Shown here piece by piece: positions 20,235-53,116 of a DNA stretch of 64,000 nucleotides. This DNA is from Octopus vulgaris. Its lineage: Eukaryota. The notes under the pieces were generated by a model, which was not told the DNA's origin, did not search any database, and saw only the letters and a program-made list of their open reading frames with translations. The DNA is taken from positions 9,610,001-9,674,000 of the forward strand of contig OX597827.1 of NCBI GenBank assembly GCA_951406725.2, in the 5' to 3' direction. A program made the translations under genes and the position numbers. The first letter of the stretch is position 1. Every line of letters begins with the position of its first letter.

Positions 20235-20881
20235 TGCTGGCCTTGTGCCAAAATTTGAAACCATTATTATCATAGTTTACAGGTAGTGAGCTGGTAGAGT
20301 TGCTAGCATGCTAGATGAAACACTTAGAGAGGTATTTCATATGTCTCTAAGTTCTAAGTTCAAATTTCACCAAGATCGACTTTGCCTTTCATCCATTCAG
20401 GGTCAATGAAATATGTACCTGTTGAGCACTGGGGTCAATGTAATCAACTTACCTGTTTCCCCATGTTGCTGGCCTTGTGCCAGAATTTGAAACCATTGTT
20501 ATTATTTTCTTTGTTTTGTTACAGTTAATCTAACATTGTTATTTATCCTAACTGATGAAAGTTTTGTGATGAATATCATAGAATTGTTGTGTTGGCAGCC
20601 TCCAGAGGAGTGAAACATGTAAGGGAACTTTTCCAGTAATTCAGATGACACTTTCAAAACAAATCACTTTATTCCATTGTGCTACTACTGCTCCCCAAAG
20701 TGGTGAAAAATCCCATTGTCCATATCAGTGAGCAATTCCTCTCTACTGCATACATGTATATCAAAATTAAATTTGGTCATTGGGAATTAACTATCGTTAT
20801 TATGGATACTGTTAAAGCAGCAAGCTCACAGAATCATTAGCATGTTAGACAAAATGCTTAGTGGTATTTCATCGGCGAAAA

Positions 20882-21113
20882 GGCGGCGAGCTGGCAGAAA
20901 CGTTAGCACGCCGGGCAAAATGCTTTGCGGTATTTTGTCTGCCGTTATGTTCTGAGTTCAAATTCCGCCGAGGTCGACTTTGTCTTTCATCCTTTCGGGG
21001 TCGATAAATTAAAGTACCAGTTATGCACTGGGGTCGATGTAATCGACTTAATACCTATGTCTGTCCTTGTTTGTCTCCTCTGTGTTTAGCCCCTTGTGGG
21101 TAGTAAAGAAATA
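20882..21113 (+). mobile_element. Young SINE family A nested in an older family-A-like SINE
   Basis: TSD ggtatttcatc at 20863-20873 and 21114-21124. The host continues on both sides. Confidence 0.9.
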
Positions 21114-21563
21114 GGTATTTCATCTGACTTTACATTCTGAATTCAAATACCATAGGGGTCAACTTTCCCTTTCGTCCTTTTGCGGTCAATAAAATAAGTA
21201 ACAGTCGAACCCTGGAGTCGATGTAGTCAACATACCCCTTTCCCTGGACTTGCTGGCTTTATACCAAAATTTGAAACCATCATTAGGGATATTGTTCAGG
21301 CAGTGGTCTTGCAGAATCACTTGACAGACAAAATTCTTCATGGTATTTCATTTGTCTTTATGTTCAGAGTTCAAATTCTGCCATGGTCAACTTTACCATT
21401 TATTCTTTCAGGGTCAATAAAGAGGTACCAGTTGAGTGCTCGGGTTGATGTAATTGATTATCCTCTCTGCCAAAATTTCAGGCCTTGTACCTATAGCAGA
21501 AAGGATTATTAGGGACATAGTTTCAATTCCTGGTTGAAACCATTTCACTTAACTCTGCTATAA

Positions 21564-23001: not shown

Positions 23002-23746
23002 TTCTTTAGCATTCAGATTGTTCTATCAAACGTAATATTTATTCACACATCGTCTTGAGTTTATTCTGCATTATCCTGTAGCCTTGAAATTTTGATTATG
23101 TGACTGTGTAATTTTTAGTCTGTGGAGGTGCGTGGCTTAGTGGTTAGGGTGTCAGCATCAAGATCATAAGATAGTGGTTTCGATTCCTGGACCAAGCGAC
23201 GCGTTGTGTTCTCAAGCAAAACACTTCATTTCACGTTGCTCCAGTCCGCGCAGCTGGCAAAAATGAGTAACGCTGCGATGGACTGGCGTCCTGTCCAGCT
23301 GGGGAACAAATACACCATTGAAACCAGGAAACCAGGCCTGTGAGCCTAACTAGGCTTTAAAAGGGCACATTTATTTATTTGTGGAGGCGCATGGCTTAGT
23401 GGTTAGAATGTCAGGACCATGATTATAAGATTGTGGTTTTGATTCCTGGACCGGGCGACACATTGTGTTCTTGAGCAAAACACTTCATTTCACGTTGCTC
23501 CAGTCCACTCAGCTTGCAAAAATGAGTAATGCTGTGATGGACTGGCGTCCCATCCAGTTGGGGAACACATACACCATAGAAACCAGGAAACTAGGCCCAT
23601 GAGCCTGGGTAGGCTTTGGAAAGGTGCATTTATTTTATTTTATTATACTTTTTAGTCTAACATTGTAGGTAGGTGTGAAATGCCTGCTTGCACTTAAAAC
23701 AGGAAGAATATTTTGGCTGGATATGACCAGTTTAAAAGCTAAAAGG
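23002..23746. mobile_element. piggyBac-type MITE family 2, interrupted by a SINE dimer
   Basis: 23002-23121 and 23649-23746 together match the reverse complement of 29181-29401. It ends AAAAGG-TTAA. Confidence 0.7.
23122..23648 (+). mobile_element. Head-to-tail dimer of a SINE (type-2 head, B2 tail)
   Basis: Two ~258 bp units starting at ~23122 and ~23381, within one TSD tttttagtct (23112-23121 and 23649-23658). Confidence 0.85.
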
Positions 23747-28351: not shown

Positions 28352-28950
28352 CACTTTTACTCTTTTACTCTTTTTATTTGTTTCAGTCATTTGACTGCGG
28401 CCATGCTGGAACACCGCCTTTAGTCGAGCAAATCAACCCCGGGACTTATTCTTTTGTAAGCCCAGTACTTATTCTATCGGTCTCTTTTGCCGAACCGCTA
28501 AGTGACGGGGACGTAAACACACCAGCATCGGTTGTCAAGCAATGCTTGGGGGACAAACACACACACACAAACACACACACATACACACACATATATTTAT
28601 ATATACACATATATATGACAGGCTTCTTTCAGTTTCCGTCTACCAAATCCACTCACAAGGCATTGGTTGGCCCGGGGCTATAGCAGAAGACACTTGCCCA
28701 AGATGTCACGCAGTGGGACTGAACCCGGAACCATGTGGTTGGTTAGCAAGCTACTTACCACACAGCCACTCCTACACCTATAATATATATGACAGGCTTC
28801 TTTCAGTTTCCGTCTACCAAATCCACTCACAAGGCATTGGTCGGCCCGGGGCTATAGCAGAATACACTTGCCCAAGATGCCACGCAGTGGGACTGAACCC
28901 ACAACCATGTGGTTGGTTAGTAAGCTACTTACCACACAGCCACACCTGCA
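28352..28950 (-). mobile_element. SINE family C with a duplicated head module
   Basis: The head occurs twice (~28617-28778 and ~28790-28950), separated by a short (TA)n, and there is a single body and tail. Confidence 0.9.
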
Positions 28951-50436: not shown

Positions 50437-51715
50437 ATATATATACATACATTTATATATACATACATACATGCATACACATTTATGTATGTATATATAC
50501 ATGCGTACGTACATCTGTATAACCAGAGAGAATGAGAGAGAGAAAGAAAGAGAGAGAGAGAGAGAGATGGGGAATTGTGCAATAAAGATGCAAAAATATC
50601 AGGGTGAAAAAAACCCAGTTTATTCCAAAATTGAACCTTATCTAAAAAGGAACATAATAATTGGATAGGCTGATTTCTTCCTGAAAATAATAATAATAAT
50701 AATTAAAAAAAAAGAACAAGAAAAGAAATCTAATTCTTCCAGAACAATTAGATGTTGCTTCATTATTTTTGTAGTGAAAAAGACACAAAAAATACATCAG
50801 CAATTCAATAAAAACACAGAAAAAGAAAAAAAAAATAGCTAGTATAAAAGAAAAAAAAATGATGGTAGATTTTTGAAGAGTAAAATCTAAACTGGAAAAC
50901 ATTTGTGATTTATTTCAATATTTACTCGAGGAGTGGATGATCTGACGTATCAAGTGGTCTAAAAGAGGAGATCAACTTTGTCAGAGTAATGTTGTAAATT
51001 GTGTCAACAATAGAGTTTTGTTGTAAACAAGTTCAGATTTCAGATGTCAGAGAAAAGTAGACAGTAGCAGTGAAAAAAAAGTCAATAATGAAGTTAAGAA
51101 GAGTAAATAGTAGTAGGTTATGTTGGGTCGCACAGCTAGTCACTCTACAAAGTATACATTCATGTGGAAAGAATCCTTTTGATAGAGAAGAAGAACGATG
51201 ACATTATGTATGAAGAGGTCAATATATAACAAAATCAGAAAATAATTGCAAATTGGTGATTCAGACTTATATATTCAAGAGAAAAAGAGAGAAAGAGACA
51301 GAGAGAGAGTGAGTGAGTGAGAGAGAGGGAGAAAGATAGTAAAGAAAAAAAAACTGAGGCAAAAAATGTCAATAGCTTGAACAGAACGGTTAGTTTGAGG
51401 AACATATCTGGCAGACAGACGAATAGAAAATAGAGCTTGACTAAGAACTAGATAATACATACAGATTGGAATTGGCGCAGCAGATACTGACAAACCTGAA
51501 GTAAAGAGCTGATCAATTGAGAGAGAGAGACAGAGAGACAGAGAGAGACAGAGAGAGGGGGGAAGGAAAGAGACAAAAAGAGAAAAAGAGATAGAGATAA
51601 AGAAATAGACTACTTTGAGTGAAATTTACCAAATGAAATAACTACACATGATGAACTCCTGGGGGAAACATAATATCATAAACGATTGTAGAAATGATAT
51701 AACAAAGTATCATCA

Positions 51716-52873
51716 GGCGAGCTGGCAGAAACGTTAGCACGCCGGGCGAAATGCTTAGCGGTATTTCGTCTGCGTTACATTGTGAGTTCAAATTCCGCCG
51801 AGGTCGACTTTGCCTTTCATCCTTTCGGGGTCGATAAAAATTAAGTACCAGTTACGAACTGGCGTCGATGTAATCGACTTAATACCTATGTCTGTCCTTG
51901 TTTGTTCCCTCTGTGTTTAGCCCCTTGTGGGTAATAAAGAAATAGGTATCTCGTCTGCCGGTACGTTGTGAGTTCAAATTCCGCTGAGGTCGACTTTGCC
52001 TTTCATCCTTTCGGGGTCGATAAAAATTAAGTACCAGTTACGAACTGGGGTCGATGTAATCGACTTAATACCTATGTCTGTCCTTGTTTGTTCCCTCTGT
52101 GTTTAGCCCCTTGTGGGTAATAAAGAAATAGGTATCTCATCTGCCGCTACGTTGTGAGTTCAAATTCCGCTGAGGTCGACTTTGCCTTTCATCCTTTCGG
52201 GGTCGATAAAAATTAAGTACCAGTTACGAACTGGCGTCGATGTAATCGACTTAATACCTATGTCTGTCCTTGTTTGTTCCCTCTGTGTTTAGCCCCTTGT
52301 GGGTAATAAAGAAATAGGTATTTCGTCTGCTGCTACGTTGTGAGTTCAAATTCCGCTGAGGTCGACTTTGCCTTTCATCCTTTCGGGGTCGATAAAAACT
52401 AAGTACCAGTTACGAACTGGGGTCGATGTAATCGACTTAATACCTATGTCTGTCCTTGTTTGTTCCCTCTGTGTTTAGCCCCTTGTGGGTAATAAAGAAA
52501 TAGGTATTTCGTCTGCTGCTATGTTCTGAGTTCAAATTTCGCCGAGGTCGACTTTGCCTTTCATCCTTTCGGGGTCGATAAAAATTAAGTACCAGTTACG
52601 AACTGGGGTCGATGTAATCGACTTAATACCTATGTCTGTCCTTGTTTGTTCCCTCTGTGTTTAGCCCCTTGTGGGTAATAAAGAAATAGGTATTTCGTCT
52701 GCTGCTACGTTCTGAGTTCAAATTCCGCCGAGGTCGACTTTGCCTTTCATCCTTTCGGGGTCGATAAATTAAGTACCAGTTACAAACTGGGGTCGATGTA
52801 ATCGACTTAATACCTATGTCTTGTCCTTGTTTGTTCCCTCTGTGTTTAGCCCCTTGTGGGTAATAAAGAAATA
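51716..52873 (+). repeat. SINE family A-derived tandem array: one head plus 6 x 186 bp units
   Basis: The B-box GAGTTCAAATT recurs at 51784, 51970, 52156, 52342, 52528 and 52714. Probable outer TSD gtatca(t/c)cag at 51707-51716 and 52875-52884. Confidence 0.95.
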
Positions 52874-53116
52874 GGTATCACCAGTCTCTGAGCCGACTCA
52901 ACTTTCATCTGTCTCAGCAGACTGAAAAGGAATCAGTCATAAATCAGCTTCTTCATTCTCTTATTGATTTATTGGCTTCAATCGTGTCATTAAACTATGA
53001 CCATATTTGGGCATTGCCTTCATTCATATGAATCTCAGTATTAATTTAAGATTTGAACTTAGTTTAGCAACCACTATATATATTGAATGGCTAGTTATCA
53101 TTTTTTTTTACATAAA

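Follow-up and report, generated by a model that had tools for sequence, protein, structure and literature searches.

Tandem arrays built from SINEs have been described in reptiles and molluscs, and the comparisons made here follow the covered parts of the cited papers. The squamate reptile satellites sSat1-3 were reported to reach hundreds of units and to lean to subtelomeres, and unequal recombination and same-locus insertion were invoked there in general terms only, as far as the covered text goes (PMC10702118). The blood clam Scapharca broughtonii was reported to contain TSD-(SINE)n-TSD arrays with 3% of the copies involved, and the covered text gave no target-site mechanism (PMC11481361). 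In crocodilians, SINEU-3 and Tx1-Mar LINEs were described as sharing an in-repeat target and stacking tandemly (PMC4494074, covered part). Two experimental systems bear on the insertion step, and in the text covered the R2 'anneal' 5′ junctions were reported to arise by pairing of the cDNA with the homologous upstream target, giving a seamless join with no duplication (PMC11331408), followed by the report that pairing of RNA and target at priming helps priming in SART1/R1Bm (PMC7265360). A SINE targeting its own head was not described in the covered text of the squamate, clam or SINEU papers (PMC10702118, PMC11481361, PMC4494074), and the covered main text of a paper on octopus repeats contained no mention of nested, dimer or satellite (PMC13282606). 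The literature searches returned no description of the self-nesting SINE system reported here, most subscription papers being outside the searched text; what is added here is the genome-wide share of the junction, the age asymmetry of the last units, the chimeric nature of the heads and a test of flank seeding.

The locus lies in a window of 64,000 nucleotides of Octopus vulgaris (contig OX597827.1, forward strand), to which all plain coordinates refer. A 1,158-bp array at 51716-52873 was found to contain one SINE head followed by six units of 185-186 bp, and TRF called 51760-52878 with a period of 186, 6.0 copies and 97% matches; the one head and six units read in the earlier note were thereby found to be real. 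SINE positions are numbered after the 233-nt monomer at 624-856, and the junction between units corresponds to position 50. The head (51716-51759) was confined to unit 1, as the earlier note had also read, and alignment with other copies showed it to be truncated by about 5 nt at the 5′ end, followed by the presence of an A-box-like motif at 51723-51733 with one mismatch to the consensus. The units were found at 51760-51944, 51945-52130, 52131-52316, 52317-52502, 52503-52688 and 52689-52873 (185, 186, 186, 186, 186 and 185 bp, respectively), and each spanned the internal GGTAT to the SINE 3′ end AAAGAAATA, unit 1 corresponding to positions 50-233. The usual unit of the SINE arrays was found to be 184 bp; the proposed 186-bp unit holds at this locus and not as the usual size, the 186 resulting from a local +AA. 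Units 2 and 3 both begin with GGTATCTC. As a small correction to the earlier reading, unit 1 reads ATTGTGAG and not GTTGTGAG. The 5′ part of unit 1 contained the 1-nt deletion and G73 haplotype of a young subfamily. The patchy variants were recovered as described: units 1 and 3 contained ctggCgtcga, units 2-4 contained gcTgag, and SINE position 73 was G in units 1-4 whereas it was C in units 5-6 (the C73 haplotype of unit 5).

The B-box consensus is GWTCRANNC, and the predicted B-box-like motif GTTCAAATTCC, an inexact match to it, was found at 51786-51796 and again at 51972, 52158, 52344, 52530 (with one change) and 52716. The region 51833-51862 contained locus-private variants, namely +AA in units 1-5 and a change of GCAC to GAAC or AAAC in all six units, followed by the presence of the tail segment ATACCTATGTCT at 51882-51893, which is complementary to the tail/target junction and occurred in all six units. 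The terminal unit 6 was without the +AA and is likely the remnant of a host copy, as last units genome-wide are older. One probable TSD brackets the whole array, in agreement with the earlier reading; it is imperfect and 11 bp long, with AGTATCATCAG (51706-51716, by sequence reading and TSD scan) on the left and GGTATCACCAG (52874-52884, by sequence reading) on the right matching at 9/11 positions. That the six units are an artefact of assembly is scarcely credible, since the differences between any two units (3-10 columns) form a nested pattern and the genome contains such arrays by the thousand. Nucleosome phasing as the cause of the period was ruled out, because the target position sets the period, which is the length of SINE between the target base and the 3′ end.

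SINEs of octopus were reportedly described by Ohshima and Okada in 1994. The element found here is a SINE by its 233-nt length, its non-coding and interspersed nature (101,678 exact 3′ ends in the genome) and its TSDs, which were found at 52/78 monomers with variable length and a median of 16 bp. Its tRNA-like head contained A and B box-like motifs with mismatches, and neither ARAGORN nor Rfam returned a tRNA match for it; the central region presumably resembles the Meta domain. Besides the array, six near-full-length copies were found in the window, and the family occurs in public sequence runs labelled as four organisms. Public contigs over the left flank and first unit were tried as an allele or empty-site test and were uninformative, being swamped by other SINE copies. 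The SINE tail was also found on elements whose ORF is zinc-knuckle-like (Pfam zf-CCHC E=0.0013, below the cut-off), and the tail-pattern searches returned mostly SINEs (28/30 and 12/14) or ORF1-type elements, with no reverse-transcriptase-coding partner seen among them. Two sister SINE families were found to have the head and body in common up to about position 168 and to differ in their tails, and they often form the last unit of an array (L289-L318 and many arrays).

The exact junction returned 7,650 forward matches genome-wide and 0 when read backwards, so that the locus is not a one-off duplication, and 26,119 of the 101,678 exact SINE tails (26%) were followed by GGTATYTCRTC, the sequence at SINE position 50. 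Of the exact 3′ ends of this SINE, which has more than 100,000 copies, about one in four thus adjoins a single base within another copy, and the genome contains thousands of short head-to-tail arrays with the same junction base. A sample not chosen by junction (800 kb from eight contigs plus the window, 864 kb in all) contained 104 tails, 34 of which ran into SINE sequence, 31/34 at position 50 (6 of these 31 from the window), and arrays accounted for 21/71 elements, the present array included. Among the matches listed, the junctions were spread along contig C1. Most array loci were picked by exact junction patterns on this contig, which biases them to young copies. The 153 sampled arrays were found to contain two (100 arrays), three (37), four (11), five (2), six (1) or seven (2) units, and the longest array seen, in a targeted fetch, contained 11. 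The description of the SINE as turning into a satellite was therefore overstated, 137/153 arrays having 2-3 units, and the arrays are short and dispersed, whereas long arrays define a satellite proper.

Like the sSats, the octopus arrays contain tandem units shorter than the SINE and one longer terminal unit, and their uniformity rises with unit number; unlike the sSats as described in the covered text, they mostly contain 2-3 units, are dispersed and have one common junction which is an insertion target (PMC10702118). In the present array itself the units were shorter than the full SINE and one terminal unit was extended, and its four middle monomers correspond to the sSat threshold of at least four, which was reached by only 3 of the 153 sampled arrays plus L335. 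The clam arrays, in the text covered, likewise come from a mollusc and consist of several SINE units within a single TSD pair, one unit having a complete head and the repeats being head-truncated, and some include a different family; their first and middle units are also truncated at the tail, whereas the tails are complete here and about a quarter of the 3′ ends are joined (PMC11481361).

The tails outside the junctions indicate why position 50 is used. Among the 70 tails of the 864-kb sample that were not joined to a SINE (12 of them belonging to an ORF1-type array and not to the SINE), 25 were followed by GGT and 13 by GGTAT, compared to a background of 0.0007 per position. Where the TSDs could be aligned and the right copy started with GGT, the left copy also started with GGT in 20/29, and so the motif was mostly present before insertion. 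A candidate drift of right TSD copies towards GGTAT (25 vs 4 positions) was set aside, as misaligned rows were included and a clean hand count gave about 9 vs 3 (p=0.15). The SINE head holds the GGTAT-like site GGTATTTCGTC, and the SINE prefers GGTAT-like targets, position 50 in its own head being one of them. Two-head nests, consisting of an old head, a short duplication, a new copy and the old body, returned 81 exact matches. One of these was found in the window (20820-21234), where a full SINE (20880-21113) interrupts an older copy of a sister family at position 50, with duplication of GGTATTTCATC. The best 12 matches to one family with the zinc-knuckle-like ORF and the same tail all ended at position 50 (12/12; 11 scored, L380 by eye), so that a precise target is common to the SINE and longer same-tail elements, as in SINEU. 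The flanks, the nests and the same-tail elements ending there together indicate that position 50 is a real insertion target. For SINEU-3, the covered text gives a Mariner element as the target and tandem copies that sandwich a TSD, whereas here the element targets its own head and a second head is mostly missing (PMC4494074). A second hot spot was found at SINE position 17 (AGAAAC), where both SINE tails and an ORF1-type group insert (L029, L080, L168, L389, L394).

The earlier note had proposed a different seed, namely that a monomer flanked by GGTAT was duplicated locally through microhomology with the internal GGTAT and then expanded by unequal exchange. At the present locus the flank is GGTATC, units 2-3 begin with GGTATC, a rare variant is common to all six units and the 3′ halves are nearly identical; arrays with a GGTAT flank were also found to have more uniform last units (median 4 vs 8 differences, p=0.0004), a comparison confounded by subfamily age. 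Against this stands the finding that the flank was present in 21/72 arrays and 15/78 monomers (p=0.18), with 51/72 arrays without it, and that the sixth base of the flank was present in 0/12 junctions of 9 other arrays. The GGTATC junction occurs 168 times genome-wide, and 0/12 other parsed main-tail loci with this junction contained a GGTATC flank (three run into further units), and the present array contains two subfamily haplotypes. Flank microhomology is accordingly a very improbable seed for the arrays, and the match between the GGTATC flank and the starts of units 2-3 is probably a coincidence, although flank microhomology may have made a local contribution at this locus.

The best explanation, to which a probability of roughly 0.7 is given, is that the array began with the reverse transcription of a new copy into position 50 of an older copy, the two heads merging, and that local duplication and unequal exchange followed. 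The serial self-insertion named as an alternative in the earlier note is thus the best fit as the seed. The older SINE copy would be the host and the GGTAT-like site at its position 50 the target, and the new copy would enter by target-primed reverse transcription with the enzyme of a LINE. The new cDNA would then join the homologous head of the host, by analogy with the R2 'anneal' junctions, or alternatively a second head would be lost soon after insertion, a course that would produce much the same chimera. In the covered text, R2 and SART1/R1Bm are autonomous elements of rDNA or telomeric repeats studied by experiment, whereas the element here is a non-autonomous SINE and the step is read from sequence (PMC11331408, PMC7265360).

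The heads and the last units carry the evidence for this seed. An old head directly upstream was found in only 9/153 sampled arrays, and the single heads are chimeras, which resemble the host at the 5′ end and the donor from about position 36 onwards. The 37 arrays ending in a sister family were found to be host-like at head position 21 (T in 17/37 vs 11/72, p=0.001), followed by donor-like states at position 38 (1/37 vs 33/52) and at position 45/50 (8/37 vs 1/52). Rare variants numbered 46 at head positions 6-28 compared to 30 expected if young (p=0.005), and 23 at positions 29-49 compared to 21.5 expected. The load of rare variants in first and last bodies was 0.0127 and 0.0184 in 50 dimers (p=0.007), 0.010 and 0.020 in 22 longer arrays, and 0.008 and 0.018 in 12 two-head nests, and the rare junction variant (168 matches genome-wide) was common to the junction and the head site at 5/24 loci. 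The older last units, the chimeric heads and the sharing between junction and head site together favour an insertion made in place, in which the heads merged.

Within the young sister subtype, the position-21 marker discriminates weakly (T in 4/17 monomers vs 9/24 arrays), and an estimated 60% or so of the heads are host-like there, which leaves room for retroposed multimers; a good part of the heads could be donor throughout. Such multimers would arise by read-through, with Pol III starting from the inner head of a nested copy and an RNA of head plus n bodies inserted whole elsewhere. A T4 run was absent from the array and first occurred at 53101, and with a B-box-like motif in each unit read-through may be possible as judged from the sequence. 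TSDs were found to bracket 32/50 dimers and 11/22 longer arrays, part of the heads are donor-like throughout, and young homo-arrays exist, a multimeric source fitting equally well the near-identical homo-arrays of the young subfamily (L081, L102, L124, L159). However, a TSD around the array is equally expected if the TSD of the host was kept, and read-through predicts neither the older last units and host-like 5′ heads nor the variant sharing between junction and head site at the 5/24 loci, and a genome search of the private variants found no sibling of the present array. Read-through retroposition is therefore considered unlikely as the source of the array.

An RNA-level origin was also weighed, in which a circular RNA covering positions 50-233 would be the template for reverse transcription, or the enzyme would repeatedly jump templates, going from position 50 to the 3′ end. 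The head is predicted to fold into a long hairpin (z -2.75) whose loop ends just before position 50, and the tail segment is predicted to be able to pair across the junction (-14.6 kcal/mol). Such a process predicts units that are identical at insertion, whereas the units of dimers were found to differ by 7.7% compared to 9.8% for random pairs; many arrays end in a sister family, sharing in the present array is hierarchical, and the same base serves other element families as a DNA target. The circular or jumping template was judged to have very little probability, and the preferred seed remains insertion of a new copy into position 50.

Growth to six units by unequal exchange, the step proposed after insertion, would be local. 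The combination of +AA with GAAC returned 5 matches in a genome search, all at the present locus, and GAAC was found in none of 17 other +AA loci, so that variants private to the locus and common to five or six units indicate that the copy number grew locally. Sharing among the units is nested and two site pairs fail the four-gamete test, and the stepwise local exchange proposed in the earlier note accounts for the patchy variants, the locus-private sharing and these four-gamete failures. Adjacent middle units had 21/58 rare sites in common whereas random pairs had 23/4,390, and divergence within arrays was 7.7% in dimers and 4.7% in arrays of four or more units, compared to 9.8% between loci. 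The last unit of the sampled arrays was distinct in its 3′ third (9.0% vs 4.6% in the 5′ third), and long arrays contained a near-identical internal run with private indels followed by a distinct last unit. Local duplication and unequal exchange fit the growth of the arrays. The young-subfamily haplotype of unit 1 was present in 27 sampled units, 24 of them within arrays, and units 5-6 contained another haplotype; two subfamily haplotypes at the 5′ ends of the units indicate that at least two sources contributed to the present array. In the 3′ half, units 5 and 6 differ at only 1 site, compared to the usual 9%, and unit 6 is so like unit 5 that the host is hard to see, the seed here being taken from the genome-wide pattern. 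The ATACCTATG variant was enriched among first units, a result that was set aside, as the junction search pattern selects that subfamily. Two other arrays (L252/L253 and L256/L257) were found to contain a rare +AA common to adjacent units. Three dimers (L006, L023, L024) contained 5′-half rare variants in common and 3′ halves of different subfamilies, as if at most about 90 bp of target had been duplicated.

The tail segment may also bear on target choice. A tentative and rather doubtful reading is that the SINE is RNA-guided and self-homing, with ATACCTATGTCT forming a pairing that spans the 3′ end of the RNA and the GGTAT target, which would steer insertion into the SINE's own head. Copies with the ATACCTATGTCT variant were found to have a GGT flank in 23/30 cases compared to 54/172 (p=7e-6), and related elements using position 50 or position 17 contained GTACC or GTTCT near their tails, as seen by eye. 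The segment may instead do no more than lengthen a stem in read-through transcripts, or may be the mark of a subfamily mobilised by a LINE of higher specificity, with different subfamilies depending on different endonucleases. If RNA guidance were true, the arrays would feed back positively by offering sites for insertion together with read-through RNAs that end in the target sequence, and a tail segment that guides target choice would represent natural RNA-programmed non-LTR insertion. Insertion at position 50 would also show concretely how a dispersed retroposon can become tandem repeats of fixed phase, a step left general in the covered text of the SINE-satellite papers (PMC10702118, PMC11481361), and the chimeric heads record at thousands of natural loci how a 5′ junction forms when cDNA and target are homologous.

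Other tandem arrangements were observed. A tandem comprising 12 or more elements, each about 1.7 kb long and carrying the zinc-knuckle-like ORF and the tail of the SINE (L133-L135, G000:C3:20.07-20.10 Mb, minus strand), was found, and no SINE host was seen at its ends. Three loci (L213, L223, L230) contained SINE heads in tandem, with a period of about 65 bp and up to 4 extra heads, upstream of a full copy, and three others (L165, L182, L203) contained full SINE copies head to tail, each inserted in the TSD of the previous copy. In the window, two-copy tandems of other repeats were found at 23113-23640 (period 259) and 28609-28947 (period 174).
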